Positions 31,666 through 44,222 of a DNA stretch of 64,000 nt are shown here, piece after piece. Below the pieces are notes generated by a model. The model saw nothing but the letters and a program-made list of their open reading frames with translations, had not been told where the DNA came from and did no database searches. How positions within the stretch are numbered: the stretch's first letter is position 1; every line of letters begins with the position of its first letter. Origin of the DNA: Candidatus Latescibacterota bacterium (lineage in GTDB: Bacteria; Latescibacterota; UBA2968; UBA8231); assembly GCA_965242865.1 (NCBI GenBank), contig CBDETK010000008.1, positions 56,915 to 120,914 on the forward strand. The letters run 5' to 3'. A program made the position numbers and the translations under genes.

Positions 31666-34600
31666 CTACGGTGCGGGATTGTAGTCGGCTCCGAACGAGC
31701 CGTAGATCTTGCCGGCGCCGTTGTTCCCGCCGGTGGCGCTCATCCAGTGCCCCGTACCGTATTGAGCACCGGTGCCGATGATCGCCCATGTCCCCATCAC
31801 GGCCAACGGGCCGTCGGGGCCTTGGCCCACGAACATGCCGCTGATTTCCGCGGAAAGATCGATATCCGATTTCGCGACGTTCAAGTAGCCTCTTGCGGGG
31901 CCGCTGAAGAAATCGTCGAAACTGGCCTCCGGAGTCCGCGGGGCGGACCAAACGACGTGAGACTTTTGGTTGCGGGGACCGGAGCCGTCCGGATCCGTAG
32001 CGAATATGCTCCCTGTCGAGAAGCCTCCGACAGCATTCTCCAAGGTGGTTCCGTCCTCAAACTCCAAGACCACCCTGCCGTTGCCCGAAGTCGGCCTTTC
32101 GTACGTCGCGGACACGAGTTCCAACTTGTGTCCCAACCGTCCGTCCGCGTCAGTCCACTCGGAGTTGGCCAGACTGTTCAACTGCGCGAGGCCCGCGGCG
32201 TCCATGGAAACCGAGGATCCGGGGTCCGGCGGATCGCTGGTGTCGAAGAGATTGATGAAATCCTGCCGAGCAACCCCCGGCAGGTTGTCGGCCGCGTTAA
32301 TCGCTCGGCCGTCGCTCGGGCGGTTCCCGCCGCTGTGGTGAACGCGCAACCTCCCCGCGCTTAGTTCTAGCGTGTTGATGTTCCAGAGGGTGTCGTCCCG
32401 GTACCCCTTCAACTCGCCAGGGAGGTCCGCGTACGTGATCTCGACGTCAATGTCGGTCTCCTCGAAGCCGATCTTGCCGCTCGCGTCGGCCCCGATGTCA
32501 GCCCAGAACGTCAGCGTCTCGACATCGAACGTGCCGGGCCTGGACCGCGTGAAGGTATTGTCCGCGGCCCGGTAGTTGATCAAGCCGTGCTGCAGCAAGC
32601 CGAAGCCCCCTCCGGATTCCCGGGCGGTCAGGTCGCTGATGTCGACGCGGAGGTCGCCCGCGACGGTCGCGGCGTCCCATTGCACCCGTGCCGTGACATC
32701 GCCTTCATAGAAGACGGTGTGCTGCATGGCCACCGTTCTCCCCTCGTAAGTCGCCAGCACGCCGGCGGGGTATCTCGACGAGCTGATCGAGTCGTAATCC
32801 GACTGGGCCAGCGGGCTGTAAGCGAACGGCTCGCCGAACTCCTCGATCCTGTGGTAGCCGCTGTAGCTCCCATTCCGCCAGGACGACAGCCGGTGGGCCG
32901 CGTACTGGCTCGTGTGGATCTGCCAGGCTCCCAAGCGGGTATGGTCCGTGGTATCGGTCAGAAACAGGATTCGCGTCGGCGACTTGTTCCACATGATATC
33001 GACCGAAGGATCGACGCCGCTGCCGCTGTCGAACCCGCTATCCGCCTTGCCGTAGAAGATCCCGCCCTCCGCGAAAGCGTCCGCGAAAGCGTCCCGGTTC
33101 TCCAGTGCTGCCAGCACGTCTTCGACCCGGGTGATGACCTCGCGGTCCCTGGCCAGGCCCGCGCTAGTCACCGGGTAATCGCTGTGAGCCGTCCACGCGG
33201 TCGCCGCGTCTCCCTCGAGTGGCGTCGTCTCGGCCGGGTCCAGCACGCCGCTATCCCGGCTCGCGTCCCTGCCCCGCGTGATGAAGTCCTTGCCTCTGTT
33301 GTCCGGGCCCAGCAGATGGCCTCGGATCCAGTTCTGCATCTCGTCGAAGATTCGCTGTCGCTGGTCGTTGGCGAAGCGGGTGTCGTCGGCGCTCGCTTCC
33401 GCGCCGTCCAGGCTGACCACTCTCCGCAACTGGCCGAGCAGCTTGGTGAGCTCTTCCCGGACGACTTGGACATGCGTCGGCGACTTGAACTCGGCCGATG
33501 CGGCGACCCGCACACGAGAATCTCTGGATTGCGGCTCGTACCCGTCCGTGAACAGCCGCTCGCGATCCAGCGTGAACTTGTAGAAATTGCGAGGTTCGTT
33601 CTTGAAGTCGTAAAACTCGTAGCTGCGGTCGTCTCCGAGGTTCCCCAAGCGCAAGTAGCTCGCGACGACGAGGTTGTTGTTCTCGGTGCTGATCGTAGTC
33701 CGCGACTCGGTGATCGCCACTCCCGGCTCTCCTCCCGGATATTCGATCGGCTCTAGATCCGATGCCGGGCGCAACCCGCCGTTTCCCGACCGTCTCGACA
33801 GTACCACCCGTCTGGAGACGCTCGCGGCCGTCGCAAAGTCGGGTTCTGGCGGCGCGGTCGTCGACATCAACGTGCCGTCGTCGCGGGCCGCGCCGAAAAC
33901 AGCTGCCGCTACTTCCAAGGGATTCTGGGACGCGCTGCCTGCCGCTACCGTGCTCCGGAAGGCGGTCACGGCGGCACTCGCCGCCGCAACGGTGTATCCC
34001 GCTCTCCGCAGCGCCGCTTGGAACTGGCTCACGGCCGCCTCGACCGCAGCTTCGTCCGCCGGGTCCAGCGCGGCCTGCTCGCCCAGCCCGGCCGCCGACA
34101 GCGCCAGCCGGAATTGGTCCTCCTCCAAAGGCTCGCCTAGGATGCCCCGGGCCCGGGCCGTGCTGAACGCGTTCGCAGCCGTTCGCGATATGTCCTGATC
34201 CGGAGTGCCTGCCAGCACAGTCTGTCGGAAGGAAAGCGCTACCGTGCGCGCCGCGGCCGGGCCGTAACCGGCCGCCAGCAAAGCTGCTTGGAATCGATTC
34301 ACCACCGCCTCCACGGCGTCGGTGTCCGCCGGGTCCAACGCACTGCCCTCGCCCAGTCCGGCTGCCTCCAGCGCCGTACCGAACAGGGAGCGCTCGCGGG
34401 CCGCCTGCCGGTCCGACGGAATCGGGGCGCGCATCGCCCCGAAGCCGCCCGCCAGGAGCGTGGACCCGCGACTGTCCGCGATCTTCCAGGCCCCAAGCAC
34501 CTGCGCGCCGACATCGACCTCGCGGCCCAGCAGTCGACCGCTGAAATCGCCCTCGACGCCCGTCTCCAGTTCCGGTGCGCCGCCCGGCAGCGAGTAGTAG

Positions 34601-36633
34601 GACAGCCGTACCGCGCCCTCGCGCTCCGCCCAACTGCCGTTGCGCCGCAGGTTCGCTTCCGGCAGCGTGATCGCCTCGACCGCCCCGCCGAAGCCGTACG
34701 TCCAAGCCGCGCCGGTGTCCGTCCGCGCTAGATTCAGCACCACGCCGTCCACTCGTTGCGGCCCGAATCGCACCTGCACGTCCATGTCGCCCGCGTACAA
34801 GACGCCCTTGCTGTCTGCCGCGTAGGTCCCGCCGGTGTAGTAGGCGTTGCCTTGCACTTGGACATGGTTAGCCCTTCGCACGGGCTCCACGGTCGACCAC
34901 GCGAACCCTTGCGCCCGCCGTCCGCTCGACAGTTCCTTGGTCGCGTCAGCCCTCTCCACGTAGCTCGCCGCGCCGTAACGCACGTCTCCAATCACGCTCA
35001 GGGCGGCTTCTGCTGTCCACTCTTCCGCGTCGAAGGCCTTGGCCGCGTTCGCCGCGCTGAGCGTATTGAACCCTCCGATGAAGTCGCTGCCGCCCTGCTC
35101 GGTCGCCGCCGCCAGGCTCTCCGCGCTCGAGAACGCTTCCACTACCCGGTCGAACGAGTCCAGCAGCCGATTCCGGTTGTATTCGCGCTCCAACTCCAAG
35201 TCGTCATCGCCGAAGAACGCCCTCAGATGCCTCTCCGCGCTCGCCCAGTGACGGTCGAGCAGGCTCCTGAAGGTGGCCTGACTGTCCGCGAAGGTCCCGG
35301 CCCGCTCCGTCTCCACGAGCCGCTCCATCTGGCCGCGGATCTTGGTCAGCTCGGTCAGCGTGCTCGCTGCCAGACGCGGTCCCGCCGCGGTAGCCTGCCC
35401 GCTGCCCAGCAGGTCGCCCATGGCGAACTCCGCCTGCACAACCTCCAGCGTCACGCCCGTCTCGTCGATTGCGGTCTTGCGGTCGTCCGTGCTCAGCATC
35501 GGCAATTCGTTGGCGCCCGCAGCGTCCTCCTTCATGGCCGTGCCCTCAGCCATCGGCAGGTCGTAGCGCATGCCCGAGAACATGCCCTCGGCGTCCATTG
35601 CCACGCGATACAGCGCGCCGTACAAGGAGATGTTGCCGCTGCCGTCGGCCGGCAGCGTGACGCCGGTCGCGCCTGCTACCGAGTAGCCCCCGCTGTCCTC
35701 GTCGCGCGTCACCTGCAGATCCGTGCCCGCGACCTGCAGAGCCTCCGGCGCGTACTCGGCCGTCCAGACGCCGTCGGCCAGAGTCAGCGTGTAGGCGTTG
35801 GTGTCGCCCGCTTGGTTCTCCGCCTCGACGGTGCCGCCCGACGCCACGGTCCGCTCGCCCATCTGCCACGAGCCGTCCTCGGATCGCGACACCGTCGCCG
35901 AGCCGCCTTCGGCGCCCAGCGCCAGCGTCTGCACAGTGGCCCTGTAGGTGCCCACCCAGCCACCGCGCTCGGTGCGCTCCAGCGCGTACTCGTTGCCGTT
36001 CGCGGTGACGATCGCCCCCGCCATCACGGTCATGCCGTCCGCGTCCTGGAAGGTGTCGTCCTCTTGTCGATACAGCGTCAGCGTGCCGCCCAGCTGGCCT
36101 AGCGCTGCCGTCACGGCCTCCGGCACGTACACGGCCATGGGCACGCCATCCTCTCCCAGCTCAACGCCGTAAGTGTTGCCGTTCTCGGTGGTGTAACGTG
36201 TTTCGGCGGTGATGGTCGTGCCGTCGGGGAGCGCGTAGGAGCCGTCCTCTTGGCGGGTGATGATGACCAATTCGCCTCTGGTCCCCAGCGGAACGGTCAC
36301 TTCAACCGGGTTGTAGGTCGCCGCCCACGTACCGTCCTCGCTCATGCTGAGGGTGTAGCTGTTGCCGTTCGAGCTGGTCGTCATGGTCTCGCCGGATATG
36401 ACCGGTGCGCCGTCCAGCGTGTAGCCGCCGGATTCGGTGGGCATCAAGGTCACCGACTCGTCGCTGGAGCCGAGTGCGACCTCCACGGCGTGTGAGTGGG
36501 ACCGTGCCGGGGGACCGGTTACAGCGCCTTGCTCGTCAACCCCGAGCGCTGCCGGACAAAGTGCCAGCACGATGCATGGTGCGAGAAGGGATCGCCCCCC
36601 CCCATTTCTGTGCCCGAGTCGAAAGATCGTCAT
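31666..36633 (-). CDS. Giant (1655 aa) secreted/surface protein with two TbpB/fHbp-like beta-barrel modules
   Basis: One uninterrupted ORF. Signal peptide with a possible lipobox-like LALC. Five ~60-aa N-terminal repeats. Barrel signatures at 34424..34860 and 31669..32760, ending GGFGAMR and YGSFGADY. See findings. Confidence 0.85.
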   Translation of the reverse strand: MTIFRLGHRNGGGRSLLAPCIVLALCPAALGVDEQGAVTGPPARSHSHAVEVALGSSDESVTLMPTESGGYTLDGAPVISGETMTTSSNGNSYTLSMSEDGTWAATYNPVEVTVPLGTRGELVIITRQEDGSYALPDGTTITAETRYTTENGNTYGVELGEDGVPMAVYVPEAVTAALGQLGGTLTLYRQEDDTFQDADGMTVMAGAIVTANGNEYALERTERGGWVGTYRATVQTLALGAEGGSATVSRSEDGSWQMGERTVASGGTVEAENQAGDTNAYTLTLADGVWTAEYAPEALQVAGTDLQVTRDEDSGGYSVAGATGVTLPADGSGNISLYGALYRVAMDAEGMFSGMRYDLPMAEGTAMKEDAAGANELPMLSTDDRKTAIDETGVTLEVVQAEFAMGDLLGSGQATAAGPRLAASTLTELTKIRGQMERLVETERAGTFADSQATFRSLLDRHWASAERHLRAFFGDDDLELEREYNRNRLLDSFDRVVEAFSSAESLAAATEQGGSDFIGGFNTLSAANAAKAFDAEEWTAEAALSVIGDVRYGAASYVERADATKELSSGRRAQGFAWSTVEPVRRANHVQVQGNAYYTGGTYAADSKGVLYAGDMDVQVRFGPQRVDGVVLNLARTDTGAAWTYGFGGAVEAITLPEANLRRNGSWAEREGAVRLSYYSLPGGAPELETGVEGDFSGRLLGREVDVGAQVLGAWKIADSRGSTLLAGGFGAMRAPIPSDRQAARERSLFGTALEAAGLGEGSALDPADTDAVEAVVNRFQAALLAAGYGPAAARTVALSFRQTVLAGTPDQDISRTAANAFSTARARGILGEPLEEDQFRLALSAAGLGEQAALDPADEAAVEAAVSQFQAALRRAGYTVAAASAAVTAFRSTVAAGSASQNPLEVAAAVFGAARDDGTLMSTTAPPEPDFATAASVSRRVVLSRRSGNGGLRPASDLEPIEYPGGEPGVAITESRTTISTENNNLVVASYLRLGNLGDDRSYEFYDFKNEPRNFYKFTLDRERLFTDGYEPQSRDSRVRVAASAEFKSPTHVQVVREELTKLLGQLRRVVSLDGAEASADDTRFANDQRQRIFDEMQNWIRGHLLGPDNRGKDFITRGRDASRDSGVLDPAETTPLEGDAATAWTAHSDYPVTSAGLARDREVITRVEDVLAALENRDAFADAFAEGGIFYGKADSGFDSGSGVDPSVDIMWNKSPTRILFLTDTTDHTRLGAWQIHTSQYAAHRLSSWRNGSYSGYHRIEEFGEPFAYSPLAQSDYDSISSSRYPAGVLATYEGRTVAMQHTVFYEGDVTARVQWDAATVAGDLRVDISDLTARESGGGFGLLQHGLINYRAADNTFTRSRPGTFDVETLTFWADIGADASGKIGFEETDIDVEITYADLPGELKGYRDDTLWNINTLELSAGRLRVHHSGGNRPSDGRAINAADNLPGVARQDFINLFDTSDPPDPGSSVSMDAAGLAQLNSLANSEWTDADGRLGHKLELVSATYERPTSGNGRVVLEFEDGTTLENAVGGFSTGSIFATDPDGSGPRNQKSHVVWSAPRTPEASFDDFFSGPARGYLNVAKSDIDLSAEISGMFVGQGPDGPLAVMGTWAIIGTGAQYGTGHWMSATGGNNGAGKIYGSFGADYNPAP
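33870..34395 (-). repeat. In-frame tandem duplication, 2 x ~270 nt (90 aa), inside the giant gene
   Basis: ALEAAGLGEGSALDPADTDAVEAVVNRFQAALLAAGY... versus ALSAAGLGEQAALDPADEAAVEAAVSQFQAALRRAGY.... The string gtccgccgggtcca recurs at 34324 and 34054. Confidence 0.75.
35580..36495 (-). repeat. Five degenerate ~60-aa coding repeats at the N-terminus of the giant protein
   Basis: Recurring pattern V.V.LG..G.L.....EDGS(Y/W) ... T.NGN.Y.L...EDG.W.A.Y.P, read in the translation. Confidence 0.65.
36595..36603 (-). repeat. G9 homopolymer in codons 11-13 of the giant gene (C9 on the + strand)
   Basis: Coding strand reads AAT GGG GGG GGG CGA (N G G G R). Confidence 0.95.
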
Positions 36634-36680
36634 TGCTGAACCTACACAAGCCCTGTTTCAGTCATCACCAGAAACTGCTC

Positions 36681-36692
36681 GGGGGGGGGGGG
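36681..36692 (-). repeat. C12 homopolymer 48-59 nt upstream of the giant-gene ATG (G12 on the + strand)
   Basis: Read directly: ctc gggggggggggg tgaag. Confidence 0.95.
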
Positions 36693-37316
36693 TGAAGACT
36701 GACACTTTCCCCGACCTTCTCCCGATCGCGCCTGCGCTCCTCGCGAAAGCCCGACTCTTGATATTGTAGACTGATCGTGCGGAGCATTGTCAACTCTACT
36801 GCATCCGGGCGGTACAGGGGATGGCAATCCGAATATCAAAACTTTGTAAAGAATCTGATCAAGAGTGAAATCTGCCCATCGCTCGCCAGTCCGCCGATGC
36901 GGAAAATCGAATGTCTGGACAATCGGCTTGGAGGAACCGCAGGGGCGAGACTTCGCAACTAGAAGCTAGACCTACTTCTATTCGGGACGAACGATCCGGC
37001 GAGACAGCTTGTGGTATACGGGGTGTCTTGGCCGTAGCGCGCACCGGGGATTTGATCGCCGAGACAATGAGAAAGCCATGCACGACGCGTCAAGGCCGCA
37101 AGAAGCCTAGCCAATGACGAAGGGGACGAACCACGTTTGACCGTCGGTCCGGAGTGATTCGTCGGAGTGCGCGGGGGCGGGCAATGCCTCGTGTTTTCAA
37201 TCGTCGACGCGGCGGGACTCAGACGAGTTAACCCGCAGGGCCCGGTTGGTTCGATGACGCGACGGAATATCGCAGTTGCACGAATTGCGCCGCAGAGCAC
37301 GTGCCCTCCCGATGCC

Positions 37317-39638: not shown

Positions 39639-40048
39639 CCGCCTGCGTCGGCCGCTCTTGGGCGAGCGAACCCGAGGTCGATGCGAATGCGGGAGCGGCG
39701 ATCGTGCGTATCCGGCGATTCAGTGCCCTCGAGCGGGAAATCCGCTGCGCTCCGACCGCGAGCGCCCGAGGTGCTCAAGAAGCGCGACCCCGCAACGCAC
39801 CGCGGGCGCGACGCTGCTTGCGGCACTGAGACGAATCGCAGTAAGTGCAACAAGATAGCAGATAATTAGCGACACGCGGTGACTCCGGACGCGACGGAGC
39901 GGCCACGCGGCCAGATCGCAAATACATGAAACAGCTTCGTGCGCTGTGCGCGCATTGTCGGCAACGCGCGCTCGCGCACCACCTAGGCCGGAGAGCTATG
40001 CATCAAGTTGAACTTGAGACGATGTTGCAGAAAGGCTACAATCGGGGC

Positions 40049-41194
40049 ATGCAGACCTTCCGCAAGGTTCTCTTTTGGCTGCACCTCATTTGCGGCGTGG
40101 CGGTCGGCTTGGTCGTCTTCGTGATGTCGGCCACGGGCGTCGTCCTGACCTACGAGAAGCAGATGGAGCGGTGGGCCGACGGTTTCGAGGTGGGCGAGGA
40201 ATGTGGCGAGGGTGCCCGGCTGGGGCCGGAGGCGTTGCTCGCGGCCACGCGAGCGTCCACCGGGAGAGTGCCGACCGCGATACTCGTCCGTTCCGACCCG
40301 TCGCAGCCTGTGCGCGTCTCGTTCGGGCGCCAGTCGAACGAGGTCCATCCCTGCACCGGAGAATCGATGGGGGAGGGCGCGCCGCAAGTGCATGGCTTTT
40401 TCCATCAGATGATCCTCTGGCACCGCTGGCTGGGCCAGGAAGGCGACGGGCGCAGCGTAGGCAAAGCGATTACCGGAGCCTGCAATCTGGCATTCCTGTT
40501 CATCATCCTGTCGGGTTCGTACCTGTGGTGGCCGAAGCAATGGACGTGGAAGCAATTGCGCGGGATCGTGCTGTTCCGGGGCGGACTGAAGGGCAAGGCG
40601 CGCGACTTCAACTGGCATAACGTGTTCGGGCTTTGGTGCGCCGTGCCGCTCTTCATCGTGGCTGGCACGGCCGTGTTCTTCTCATACTCGTGGAGTTCCG
40701 ATCTGCTCTATGCCGTTACCGGCGAGGAGCGGTCAGCTTCAAGCGGACGGGGCCGAGGGGGCGGGGCGGCAAGCCCCGGGCAGGAGAGTGAAGAGCCTCC
40801 CGGTTTCACGGGACTCGACGCGCTCTGGAAAACGGCAGTTGCCATCGAGCCCGATTGGAGATTGATCACGATGCGCATTCCGGAACGTCCGCAGGCCCCG
40901 GTCTCGTTCACGCTCGACCGCGGGAACGGCTTCCGACCGGATCTCCGCACCACCGTGGTGCTCGACCGCAGCACCGGCAAGGTCGTGCGCCAGGTGGAAT
41001 ACGCTGACAATCCAAAGGCGGCCAACGCCCGGTCTTGGATCCGCTGGCTGCACACCGGGGAAGCGGGCGGCCTCGCCGGGCAAACCTTGGCCGGGATCGT
41101 CTCGCTGGCCGCTTGCTTTCTGGTGTACACGGGCTGGATGCTGAGCTGGCGTCGCTTTCAGGCTTGGCGGACTAGGAATCGCGGATCCCCGTGA
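40049..41194 (+). CDS. PepSY-associated TM helix protein (PiuB-like)
   Basis: MQTFRKVLFWLHLICGVAVGLVVFVMSATGVVLTYEKQ is the typical PepSY_TM N-terminus. Four TM segments. ATG 40049 preferred. Confidence 0.8.
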   Translation: MQTFRKVLFWLHLICGVAVGLVVFVMSATGVVLTYEKQMERWADGFEVGEECGEGARLGPEALLAATRASTGRVPTAILVRSDPSQPVRVSFGRQSNEVHPCTGESMGEGAPQVHGFFHQMILWHRWLGQEGDGRSVGKAITGACNLAFLFIILSGSYLWWPKQWTWKQLRGIVLFRGGLKGKARDFNWHNVFGLWCAVPLFIVAGTAVFFSYSWSSDLLYAVTGEERSASSGRGRGGGAASPGQESEEPPGFTGLDALWKTAVAIEPDWRLITMRIPERPQAPVSFTLDRGNGFRPDLRTTVVLDRSTGKVVRQVEYADNPKAANARSWIRWLHTGEAGGLAGQTLAGIVSLAACFLVYTGWMLSWRRFQAWRTRNRGSP

Positions 41195-41810: not shown

Positions 41811-44222
41811 GTGCATCCTAATTCACCCTATAGGCGTGATCGACGCTGCCTGTTCGCATGGCGGTTTCGTGCGCTTGCAGCGTTGCTTGCCGCGTCCTCC
41901 GGCGGTATCGCTACGGGTCAAGACACGGTCGGAACCGCATCAGTTCGCGGAGTCGTGCAACGGCATGACGGCACTCCTGGCGCGGGCTTGCGAGTTTGTA
42001 TCGCGGATACGAATCAATGCGCCGTCAGCGACGGGGAGGGGCGGTTCGGCACTCTTGACGCCCGCCCGGGGACCCGTCGGCTCGAAGTCCAACTGGAGCT
42101 GGGCGTCGTCCTGGCAACTCGCGAAGTCGAGACTCGCGCCGGCCTCACCAGCGAGGTGCAACTCGTGCTGCCGGAAGTTGGAGCGGTGGAGACTTCGATC
42201 ACCGTGAATGCCTCCGCGGTGACCACGCCCGACGAGGTCGTCACCTCCGGCGTGCGCATCCGAAACCGGGAAATCGCGAAGGTGGCGGACGGGATGCAAG
42301 ATGTCTCGCGGTACGTGGCGACCCTACCCGGCGTCATGACGGGCTCGGCGGACTTCCGCAACGACATCATCGTTCGCGGTGGGAGCCCGTTGGAGAACTT
42401 GTTCATTGTCGACAACATCGAGATTCCGAACATCAATAGCTTCGCGAACCTAGCCTCCGCCGGGGGCACGTTCAGCCTGTTGGACGTGCAGTTGATCGAG
42501 GACGTGACGTTCTTGACGGGAGGGTATCCGGCACCGTACGTCAACCGGCTCTCGAGCGTCATGCAGGTCACCCAGCGCGAGGGCAGCCGGGAGAAGTTCC
42601 GGGGACGCGCCACGCTGGCGTACGCCGGGGCCGGGGGAGTGCTGGAGGGTCCATGGGGCGGAGGGAACGGTTCGTGGATCGTGTCCGGCCGCCGGAGTTT
42701 CTTGGACCTGTTCGGCAACAATCTCGGCACGGGCGGCGTGCCGGTCTATTACTCGTTCACCGGCAAGGCCGTGCGGGACTTCGGCTCTCTGGATCGGGTT
42801 TGGATCACCAGCATCACCGGCCTGGACACCGTCCGACTCGGTCCGTCCGACGATCTAGATCCCGCCGACGAGTTGAACACCGTCGATATCCGCTACAGCG
42901 GATTTCGCAACGCGACGGGATTCAATTGGCAGCACATCTTCGGCTCGCGGGGCGTAGGCCTGCTGGGTCTGACCCATTCTCGGGCGAGGGTCGATTCGAC
43001 AGTCAAGGACCTTGTTCGGAACGGCCCGTTCGCGCCCGGCGCGGACATCGAGCAACGGCTCGCGGCCGGAGCGGTCGCCTTCCGGCAGGACGCGACGGAA
43101 GACGAAACGACGCTGAAGTACGACTTGACGCTGCATGGGAACCGCTTCGGCGAGTTCCGCCTCGGCGCCACGCAGAAGCGCTTCGTGAACAACTACATCA
43201 CGCTCTCGCCGCTGGGCTACGACGGTCCCTACACGCGGGTTCCTGACATCAACCCGATCAACTTGCGGGAGCGCATCACGGCCGCGCAGTCCGGGGCGTA
43301 CCTGCAGGGCACGCACTCCTTGGCTCCGCGGGTCCGCCTGACTCTCGGGGGGCGCTTCGATCGCTACGCGCATTTTGGGAAAGCGCATACGCGCTTCAGT
43401 CCGCGGGCCGCCCTCCGGGTGGGTCTCGGGGGCAACCTTTCATGGAACACGAGCTGGGGCCTGTACCACCAATTGCCCTTGTATCTCTTCATGAGCGCGT
43501 TCGAGTCGAATCGGGCGCTGCGGCCGGCGCGGTCGGAACATTGGGTTACCGGAATCAGCTGGATCCCGCGGCCCAGCCTGCGAGTGACTGTCGAGGGATA
43601 CGCGAAGAACTACAAGGACTACCCGGCTTCGACCCAGTTCCCGCAGCTCTCCTTCGCCAACGTGGGCGACACCTTCAATGTCCGCGACATCCTGTATCCG
43701 ATGTCGAGCGTCGGCAGGGGGAGATCCCGCGGGGTCGAATTCTTCGTCGAGAAGAAATCGGAACAGAACTGGTTCGGGCAACTGAACTTCGCTTACTCGC
43801 GGACCTATCATGCCGGGCGCGATCACGTGTTTCGTCCTGGCGCGTTCGACCGTCCCTTCGCCTTCAACGCGGTTGGCGGCCGCCGACTCGCCGCCAACTG
43901 GGAACTCGCCATGCGCACCTCTTACCTGACCGGCAGGCCGTACACGCCGTTCCACGGGGAGTTGTCGCGGGCGCAGCAACGAGGCATCTTCGATCTAGAC
44001 CGAGTGAACGCGTTACGGCTTCCGGCCTTCTTCACGCTCGACCTGCGTGTCGACCGCATCTTCCGCGTCGGCGACCAGACAGCGGTGGTTTACGCGGGCC
44101 TGCAGAACGTGACCGGCCGCCAGAATCGGACGAGCCCATCCTGGAATCGCTTGACGAACGAGGCCGGGGCGAGTGACGCTTTCGGTCGCCTTCTGATCAT
44201 GGGCATGGAATGGGCCTTCTGA
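41811..44222 (+). CDS. TonB-dependent receptor with N-terminal carboxypeptidase-regulatory-like domain
   Basis: VRGVVQRHDGTPGAGLRVCI...DGEGRF (CarboxypepD_reg), plug IIVRGGSPLENLFIVDNIEI, C-terminal aromatic ...GMEWAF. Confidence 0.85.
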   Translation: MHPNSPYRRDRRCLFAWRFRALAALLAASSGGIATGQDTVGTASVRGVVQRHDGTPGAGLRVCIADTNQCAVSDGEGRFGTLDARPGTRRLEVQLELGVVLATREVETRAGLTSEVQLVLPEVGAVETSITVNASAVTTPDEVVTSGVRIRNREIAKVADGMQDVSRYVATLPGVMTGSADFRNDIIVRGGSPLENLFIVDNIEIPNINSFANLASAGGTFSLLDVQLIEDVTFLTGGYPAPYVNRLSSVMQVTQREGSREKFRGRATLAYAGAGGVLEGPWGGGNGSWIVSGRRSFLDLFGNNLGTGGVPVYYSFTGKAVRDFGSLDRVWITSITGLDTVRLGPSDDLDPADELNTVDIRYSGFRNATGFNWQHIFGSRGVGLLGLTHSRARVDSTVKDLVRNGPFAPGADIEQRLAAGAVAFRQDATEDETTLKYDLTLHGNRFGEFRLGATQKRFVNNYITLSPLGYDGPYTRVPDINPINLRERITAAQSGAYLQGTHSLAPRVRLTLGGRFDRYAHFGKAHTRFSPRAALRVGLGGNLSWNTSWGLYHQLPLYLFMSAFESNRALRPARSEHWVTGISWIPRPSLRVTVEGYAKNYKDYPASTQFPQLSFANVGDTFNVRDILYPMSSVGRGRSRGVEFFVEKKSEQNWFGQLNFAYSRTYHAGRDHVFRPGAFDRPFAFNAVGGRRLAANWELAMRTSYLTGRPYTPFHGELSRAQQRGIFDLDRVNALRLPAFFTLDLRVDRIFRVGDQTAVVYAGLQNVTGRQNRTSPSWNRLTNEAGASDAFGRLLIMGMEWAF

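Follow-up and report, generated by a model that had tools for sequence, protein, structure and literature searches.

Poly-G and poly-C tracts at the 5' end of a giant gene: a probable phase-variable protein family outside the Proteobacteria

Two long homopolymers mark the 5' end of a giant gene on the minus strand of a 64,000-nucleotide (nt) stretch of contig CBDETK010000008.1 (Candidatus Latescibacterota bacterium; this whole stretch is referred to as the window): a run of nine G residues (G9) inside the open reading frame (ORF) and a run of twelve C residues (C12) upstream of it. Do these tracts form a genetic switch, or are they a by-product of base composition, RNA structure or sequencing error? 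A sequence-only reading had taken the tracts for a candidate on/off switch of a surface-protein gene, worked by strand slippage at its 5' end, and this proposal is supported by the tract lengths of orthologs, by their effects on the reading frame and by the presence of paralogs in mixed states. We estimate at roughly three in four the probability that the locus is a simple-sequence contingency (phase-variable) gene, in which a frame switch in the G tract is accompanied by an independently varying C tract in the leader, and that this arrangement holds family-wide.

Reading of the minus strand places both tracts exactly where they had been reported, C12 48-59 nt upstream of the ATG and G9 in codons 11-13, the sequence being GTCAGTCTTCA-C12-GAGCAGTTTCTGGTGATGACTGAAACAGGGCTTGTGTAGGTTCAGCA-ATG ACG ATC TTT CGA CTC GGG CAC AGA AAT GGG GGG GGG CGA TCC. 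The window (63.1% G+C, hereafter GC) contains nine homopolymers of at least 6 nt in total. Apart from the 12-mer and the 9-mer these are seven 6-mers; the maximum elsewhere is thus 6 nt and not the 6-7 nt noted earlier. Under Markov models of order 1, 3 or 5 trained on the window (300 simulations per order, expectations per 64 kb), G/C runs of at least 9 nt were expected 0.64 times at order 1 and 0.12-0.14 times at orders 3 and 5, and runs of at least 12 nt were expected 0-0.01 times; two runs of at least 9 nt within 150 nt of each other arose in 1/300 simulations at order 1 and in 0/300 at orders 3 and 5. Moreover, GGG makes up 18% of the Gly codons of the giant ORF, and codons 11-13 are the sole adjacent GGG codons in it. 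The C12 and G9 tracts are real compositional outliers and no chance feature. G and C homopolymers are known to slip from about 8-9 nt upward; both tracts are of slip-prone length and lie, as in known contingency loci, in the 5' part of an ORF or in its upstream region.

A comparison of tract lengths among related genomes had been suggested as a check, and it revealed variable tracts on conserved flanks. We fetched the DNA for the 12-member 90%-identity cluster of the window protein, whose members differ in their N-termini, and for three orthologs at 78-79% protein identity, and read the tract lengths from consensus assemblies at 11 orthologous loci from other assemblies. Four lengths of the G tract were found, G6, G9, G10 and G11; the C tract occurs as C9, C10, C11 or C12, and is always present and never interrupted, even at 79% protein identity. 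The combinations are C12/G9 (the window, L132 and L005/L006), C10/G9 (L001), C11/G6 (L009, L010, L011 and L002), C12/G6 (L003 and L004), C9/G10 (L007) and C11/G11 (L008). Between L001 and L011 the 2177 flanking nt contain a single substitution and no indel, while the tracts read C10/G9 and C11/G6, respectively; this contrast is the signature of hypermutable tracts, which change much faster than their flanks. Tract length thus differs among close strains, and in silico the out-of-frame alleles are otherwise intact, both being hallmarks of contingency loci. Given that the C run is uninterrupted in 11 loci despite its mutability, the run itself appears to be selected, either for that mutability or for some C-specific property.

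The length of the G tract has direct consequences for the reading frame. In L007 (G10) the canonical ATG reads into a TGA while the remaining 1605-codon ORF is intact, and the gene call starts at a downstream GTG. In L008 (G11) the ORF is in frame only from an ATG located 10 nt 5' of the canonical one and in another frame, which gives the protein P0130 with the N-terminus MYKDDVRSIPAQIRGGGRF... For the window gene, a 1-nt change in G9 had been expected to truncate the protein after about 13 codons; the frame is indeed lost at codon 13, but translation would run on to a stop at about codon 32 with G10 and at about codon 37 with G8. The protein P0122 (1635 aa, L005:2501) was considered as a further out-of-frame allele and rejected, as the DNA shows G9 in frame and the caller had picked a downstream ATG. 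Gene callers are inconsistent for this family in general (P0122, P0035, P0044 and others), choosing a downstream ATG despite an open frame, or a truncation to MAGCGG or MALWAQSE if the tract is out of frame.

Start codons are present in all three frames (Table 1). The start formed by AAT and the first G of the tract is used in the gene call of one relative, P0065, at the equivalent position (MGGGRLSLL), and the sister lineage of L007 and L008 has an ATG in the frame of the TTG, at -40 instead of -46. The weak Shine-Dalgarno-like GTAGGT has an invariant GT core among orthologs, with variable A/G positions. Since start codons exist in the other two frames too, the G-tract switch may possibly be three-state (high, low, low) and not strictly on/off. 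Two upstream ORFs (uORFs) were discarded. The 65-aa uORF (36839..36642) pointed out earlier does exist, but it is not credible: its TTG start lies 5' of the likely promoter, its frame changes with C length and is lost in the C10 and C11 orthologs, and it is not conserved. A shorter uORF starting at GTG (36705..36703), in which the C run reads Pro-Pro-Pro, was rejected because L003, L007 and L008 lack the GTG and the frame follows C length.

The same architecture recurs in paralogs. A scan of species-representative genomes returned a 99%-identical ortholog (L132) on a 6.73-Mb contig (CBDEST010000005.1) of 'MAG: Bryobacterales bacterium' (a metagenome-assembled genome, MAG; Acidobacteriota), which also carries at least 13 paralogs at about 38-42% identity. 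Ten of these paralogs, as well as L132, possess G9-G16 shortly behind the start codon, at the position that corresponds to the window tract, in the region encoding the signal-peptide n-region. Five of the ten have C10-C12 located 74-90 nt 5' of the G run, and the remaining five have an interrupted C-rich stretch. Each gene was examined in silico with all tract lengths between 5 and 18; four genes are in frame, L132 (G9), L138 (G16, with its Shine-Dalgarno region lost), L139 (G12) and L143 (G12). A further six have lost the frame yet retain more than 900 open codons, L137 (G11), L140 (G12), L141 (G14), L142 (G9), L145 (G12) and L147 (G11), and in each of them a single 1-nt change would reconnect the frame; L144 (G10) is out of frame and additionally has one in-frame stop. 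The proportion of in-frame genes in this MAG (4/11) is as expected for unconstrained phase.

The paralog tracts lie at locus positions of about 6840-7000 of L137-L145 and L147, and a further family member with G14 begins at L142:17546. The paralog at L133:6778 has a canonical LAGC lipobox and C10 about 50 nt 5' of its GTG start, with no G tract. Since L133 has C10 alone and other genes have G tracts without a C tract, the two tracts are separable modules. Long C runs were also seen outside the 5' ends of the family, at L142:12001 (C11) and L139:13982 (C10) in the Bryobacterales MAG and at L134:12548 (C12) in a Rubritalea MAG; these may mark other phase-variable genes.

Beyond these genomes, a word-indexed search with the giant protein retrieved 130 relatives. 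The family is rare, since an exhaustive search of 1.84 billion clusters yielded 242 representatives. Relatives were also found in the Rubritalea MAG (Verrucomicrobiota) and in an unrelated genome, the circular 5.79-Mb contig ctg6951c, with 61% GC and with PSCyt1, PSCyt2, PSD1, DUF1501 and sulfatase genes as neighbours, whose organism is apparently planctomycete-like. This contig carries about 20 lipoprotein-type paralogs (22 listed). At one of them, L148 (L148:9954), the DNA reads ATG CAG AGC AAG TTG AAG AAA TTC-G12-TAA and is out of frame; at another, L149 (L149:10026-10038), the tract is G13 and in frame, the resulting MHSKLKKFGGGGVTLFLAGLLTVGMAGCGG being a lipoprotein signal peptide, and the immediate flanks are those of L148. 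Neither L148 nor L149 has a C run of at least 7 nt upstream of the gene. Among the 22 paralogs, 16 are called from a start 3' of the tract, in 15 cases at MAGCGG, and a full N-terminus of the MxxKLKKFGGGGVTLF type is seen in 4. When JGI metagenome contigs were scanned with the leader motif as a pattern, the matches listed (at least 120) were chance matches throughout.

Table 1. Positions of features of the giant gene and its surroundings in the window.
Feature	Position	Strand	Remarks
C12 tract	36692..36681	minus	within the conserved leader, upstream of ATG 36633..36631; second hypervariable homopolymer
G9 tract	36603..36595	minus	AAT GGG GGG GGG CGA = N-G-G-G-R; signal-peptide n-region; proposed translational frame switch
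Giant gene, 1655 codons	36633..31666	minus	N-terminal tandem beta-rich repeats and at least one predicted TbpB/NHBA-type barrel
Canonical ATG start	36631..36633	minus	in frame if G tract length is 0 mod 3
ATG from AAT and first tract G	36603..36605	minus	in frame if G length is 1 mod 3; gives MGGGRSLL...
TTG	36647..36649	minus	frame entering the ORF if G length is 2 mod 3
Weak Shine-Dalgarno-like GTAGGT	36640..36645	minus	AGG 7 nt before ATG; direct sequence reading
Conserved 5' leader, ~123 nt	36634..36756	minus	holds the C tract; long invariant blocks
Likely -10 box TACAAT	36763..36768	minus	invariant in alignment of 10 orthologous upstream regions
Likely -35 box TTGACA	36788..36793	minus	invariant in 10/10 orthologous loci while spacer varies
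Conserved motif TTTACAAAGTTTTGAT	36835..36850	minus	~45 nt 5' of -35 box; near-invariant in 10-locus alignment
Predicted Sec signal peptide MTIFRLGHRNGGGRSLLAPCIVLALCPAALG / VDEQ	36541..36633	minus	charged n-region, hydrophobic core, A-L-G; by eye
Predicted barrel domain, residues 556-740	34414..34968	minus	AlphaFold2 predicted local distance difference test (pLDDT) 89.5, predicted template modelling score (pTM) 0.84; 10 DSSP strand elements
PepSY_TM protein	39926..41194	plus	upstream of giant gene, opposite strand
TonB-dependent receptor	41811..44222	plus	~5 kb from giant gene, opposite strand

Where, then, does the C tract lie with respect to the promoter? In the alignment of 10 orthologous loci, conservation is strong from about 36756 to the ATG, whereas the promoter spacer and the sequence further 5' are variable. 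The leader blocks GGGAGAAGGT... and GTCTTCA-Cn-G...AGTTTCTGGTGA persist in orthologs with 79% protein identity, and the paralogs have a -10-like element at the matching place relative to the conserved leader (about 125 nt). A consensus promoter scanner run on the window gave no match at TTGACA/TACAAT, since the spacer is 19 nt, and the promoter was identified by conservation instead. Judged from this conservation, C12 would be located in the 5' untranslated leader, about 65 nt 3' of the likely transcription start and -10 box. Given this position downstream of the promoter, within the conserved leader, the earlier suggestion that changes in C12 could alter promoter spacing is unlikely to hold. 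Rfam covariance models searched against 36300..37300 returned only a chance microRNA match (E 0.56). Directly 3' of the C run, the leader block AGTTTCTGGTGATGACTGAAAC (36654..36675, minus strand) is almost invariant and contains a GTTTC...GAAAC hairpin or palindrome; if the TAG of most orthologs is counted in, this block places a stop codon in each of the three frames. The motif TTTACAAAGTTTTGAT is kept in all orthologs, with an echo upstream of the paralog L133, and may be a candidate regulator site or an UP element.

We propose that the G run gains and loses bases by slipped-strand mispairing in replication, and that the resulting changes are reversible and frequent. With G6, G9 or G12 (multiples of three) the canonical ATG would be in frame, and only Gly residues would be added to or removed from a tolerant part of the signal peptide; as the Gly codons of the tract belong to the n-region, 3-nt changes should be harmless. 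Other G lengths would uncouple the 1655-codon ORF from the canonical ATG, and the weaker starts in the two other frames may then give low-level expression. The C run would constitute a second, independently varying homopolymer in the transcribed leader, and probably tunes the amount of product via the structure or stability of the leader RNA. Each cell lineage would consequently express a changing subset of giant secreted proteins or lipoproteins with TbpB/NHBA-type barrels, presumably exposed at the cell surface.

Several points weigh against this interpretation or limit its reach. The tract lengths come from consensus assemblies, with one length per tract per locus, and some could be assembly errors, given that the MAG is probably a long-read assembly and that the out-of-frame alleles are always 1 nt from in-frame. 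The window, L132 and L005 have diverged by 4-5% in their flanks yet all read C12/G9, which does not look like free drift; the sharing of these lengths by diverged assemblies suggests selection for a preferred state, or a modest mutation rate. The promoter, with its unusual spacer and negative scanner result, and the transcription start are inferred. The in-frame state is no guarantee of expression, as L138 shows, which has an open frame but no longer a Shine-Dalgarno region. Finally, the check on DNA covered 2 of the about 20 paralogs of ctg6951c, and a truncated N-terminus among the others is no more than an indication, as the case of L005 illustrates.

In an alternative that we regard as rather unlikely, the two tracts pair over a distance in the mRNA, C run with G run, as the arms of one helix, with the ribosome-binding site and the AUG enclosed between them; structural control of translation would then be the main function, and length variation secondary or a matter of tuning. 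The minimum free energy and centroid folds of the window leader do pair C12 with G9, and RNAalifold predicts the C-G pairing in the ortholog set as well as in the paralog set. The distance between the tracts is fairly constant (74-94 nt), and a few compensatory changes are seen beside them (UCG/CGA to UGC/GCA in L002 and L004, A-U to C-G in L145). However, these changes are too weak to rely on, and L003 breaks the compensatory pairs. The folds carry no thermodynamic signal against dinucleotide shuffles (z-scores of -0.09 and -0.53), and in a duplex test the flanks were no more complementary than shuffled leaders or non-cognate partners. Moreover, five Bryobacterales paralogs as well as L148 and L149 have a G tract without a C tract, L133 has C10 without a G tract, and the G6 orthologs still keep C11-C12. 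An obligate C:G helix is not supported; a modulatory pairing may occur, and an mRNA helix could coexist with the frame switch. We also considered whether the two arms are kept at equal length, as template switching between them might produce, and rejected this idea: C and G lengths match at three of about 10 loci (L008, 11/11; L144, 10/10; L145, 12/12), which is indistinguishable from chance.

A bolder version combines both ideas, and we offer it as a speculation in which we place still less trust than in the helix as such. The leader C run and the coding G run would together form a heritably adjustable two-arm device, in which slippage changes the frame through the G arm and also the length or register of a C:G helix around the ribosome-binding site; each locus could thereby take many expression levels, and the module would have spread over giant TbpB-fold genes in unrelated host-associated bacteria (Acidobacteriota, Planctomycetota-like).

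It is improbable that the out-of-frame alleles are still expressed through RNA polymerase slippage or ribosomal frameshifting, the tract being a recoding site and no heritable switch. Transcriptional slippage is possible on runs of 9-16 nt, being established for A/T runs and less so for G/C runs, and the out-of-frame paralogs do keep intact ORFs. Recoding sites are usually fixed, though, whereas tract length here is not conserved, and the same genes have in-frame alleles. The alternative starts in other frames fit phase variation at the DNA level better, and slippage would blur such a switch, not replace it.

More improbable again is the possibility that the tracts are real but fixed, with the length differences and the out-of-frame paralogs reflecting homopolymer errors in sequencing, assembly or polishing. 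Errors are common in homopolymers of 9-16 nt, above all where the assembly is built from long reads; every out-of-frame state lies 1 nt from an in-frame one, and C12/G9 was recovered in the three diverged assemblies. Against this, G6 and G9 differ cleanly by 3 nt on near-identical backgrounds, in two samples and with two assemblers; the G10 of L007 was read from an ENA scaffold, and the same protein is also encoded by a second contig, while the G11 of L008 comes from a Logan contig. This G11 coincides with an alternative ATG that restores the frame, which is not expected from error. Errors would also leave most genes in frame, whereas 4/11 in the MAG and 4/20 in the second genome (from N-termini) are in frame, approximately the one-third of unconstrained phase. 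Finally, site-specific inversion of the roughly 80 bp that hold the ribosome-binding site and the ATG, with the two runs as inverted repeats, is hardly tenable: the tracts are reverse complements flanking the translation start, but the intervening segment has the same orientation in 11 orthologous and 10 paralog loci (0/21 inverted), no recombinase gene lies beside the locus, and 74-94 bp is very short for recombinase-mediated inversion.

If phase variation of the giant gene is accepted, what kind of protein does it switch? The giant protein has no Pfam or NCBIfam domain, including Pfam TbpB_B_D, and a profile search of PDB sequences yielded nothing at E up to 1. The TbpB likeness suggested earlier nevertheless gains structural support from the model of residues 556-740. 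Foldseek searches of the PDB with this model matched the C-domain of NHBA (E 1.4e-6), then TbpB, fHbp, PmSLP (a Slam-dependent lipoprotein), HphA and HpuA, with a probability of 1.00 each and target-normalised template modelling (TM) scores of up to 0.75. On the strength of this model, we confidently assign the residues to the TbpB/NHBA/fHbp/HpuA surface-lipoprotein beta-barrel fold. A model of the C-terminal 376 aa (pLDDT 68.7) gave no significant fold match; the C-terminal end ...GKIYGSFGADYNPAP shows a motif similar to the barrel domain, but the model is too poor there to judge. Tandem repeats of about 60 aa (VEVALG..SVTLM..E.GGYTL...NGN.Y.L...DG.W.A.Y.P) occupy residues about 50-330, and residues about 745-900 hold an internal duplication (AGLGE..A.DPAD..AVEA.V.QFQAAL..AGY) that many relatives lack. 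As to lipoprotein character, this copy reads LAPC/LALC, which is not a canonical lipobox, and the Cys residues are absent in the lineage of L007 and L008; most relatives have the lipobox LAGC/GGDEP.

The giant gene is placed in the order sulfatase, giant gene, AAA_14/DUF4143 ATPase, sulfatase, purA, and no Slam was found among the annotated neighbour genes. A pair of genes for a PepSY_TM protein and a TonB-dependent receptor is located about 3-8 kb upstream, and the same pair is found in L002. TbpB-type proteins usually work with TonB-dependent receptors, and the receptor could be a functional partner of the giant protein or a coincidence.

Taken as a phase-variable repertoire, the family would comprise 11 tract-bearing genes in a 6.7-Mb genome and about 20 in another, each of 1300-1900 codons and with its own switch, about a third to a fifth being in frame at once. 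It is a rare, Pfam-less family containing, as modelled, a TbpB/NHBA/fHbp barrel typical of host-interaction lipoproteins. Since callers truncate or split these genes, the N-termini in databases are unreliable and automated annotation misreads the family. The labels of the short-read contigs (PANK22-1_SAMN..._METAG) led us to suspect an origin in marine sponge metagenomes; if it is true, surface variation might allow a long-term symbiont to escape host phagocytosis or phages. Our full-text literature searches found no report linking phase variation to Acidobacteriota or to sponge or other marine-host symbionts.

Homopolymer phase variation is textbook knowledge for a handful of animal pathogens and commensals. 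In the hpuA and hmbR genes of Neisseria, a poly-G tract near the 5' end of an ORF for an exported protein switches translation by frameshift. The giant gene resembles them in its poly-G frame switch in the 5' part of the ORF and, as far as the model of residues 556-740 indicates, in the fold common to NHBA, TbpB, fHbp and HpuA. Unlike the TbpB and HpuA types of Neisseria, the proteins described here are giants of 1300-1900 aa with long N-terminal tandem repeats and tens of paralogs per genome; there is no Pfam TbpB domain by sequence, no Slam among the neighbours and no canonical lipobox in the window copy, and the tract-bearing relatives belong to Acidobacteriota and other non-proteobacterial lineages. 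In Neisseria gonorrhoeae pilC, Jonsson and colleagues reportedly described in 1991 a G run within the signal-peptide coding region. The location of the tract is the same here, and in pilC in-frame changes are harmless while out-of-frame changes abolish export or expression; pilC differs in family, size, copy number and phylum, and is without a second tract in the leader.

Other parallels concern the number of switched genes and their genomic setting. Neisseria opa genes are many paralogs, each with its own repeat in the signal-peptide region, whose independent switching gives combinatorial surface variation, and in Haemophilus influenzae lic1 starts in more than one frame give graded and not binary states. 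The giant genes are like opa and lic1 in having many paralogs with their own tracts and start codons in several frames, but the repeats there are pentamers (CTCTT) or tetramers (CAAT), and the products are small outer-membrane proteins or enzymes of lipooligosaccharide synthesis. The sequence-only reading was aware of no precedent in this kind of high-GC organism; Bordetella pertussis provides one, as the poly-C tracts of the fim2/fim3 promoters and of bvgS undergo phase variation in a genome of about 67% GC. The fim tracts, in contrast to those described here, lie between an activator site and the -10 box, in a proteobacterial pathogen with no giant gene family.

Dual-tract control also has precedent, since porA of Neisseria meningitidis has a promoter homopolymer and a coding-region homopolymer. 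In Moraxella catarrhalis, a G tract upstream of the uspA1 ORF leads to graded mRNA levels, whereas a G tract at the 5' end of the mid/hag ORF acts on/off (PMC7302503). These correspond to the two roles that we propose for the C tract and the G tract; in Moraxella the tracts are on different genes, while here both are on one gene and mutually complementary, the effect of the leader tract being a proposal. In N. meningitidis opc, a variable poly-C in the promoter region controls the level of expression (PMC3960869). The upstream tracts of porA and opc act via promoter geometry, unlike the C tract here, which is located about 65 nt 3' of the probable -10 box. By analogy with the upstream tracts of uspA1 and opc, our best guess is that the C tract would serve as a graded 'volume' control. 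What sets this system apart from all of these is its uncultured Acidobacteriota and non-proteobacterial setting, the giant proteins with a predicted TbpB fold, the tens of paralogs per genome, each presumably switched independently, and the pairing of a C tract in the leader with a G tract in the coding region.

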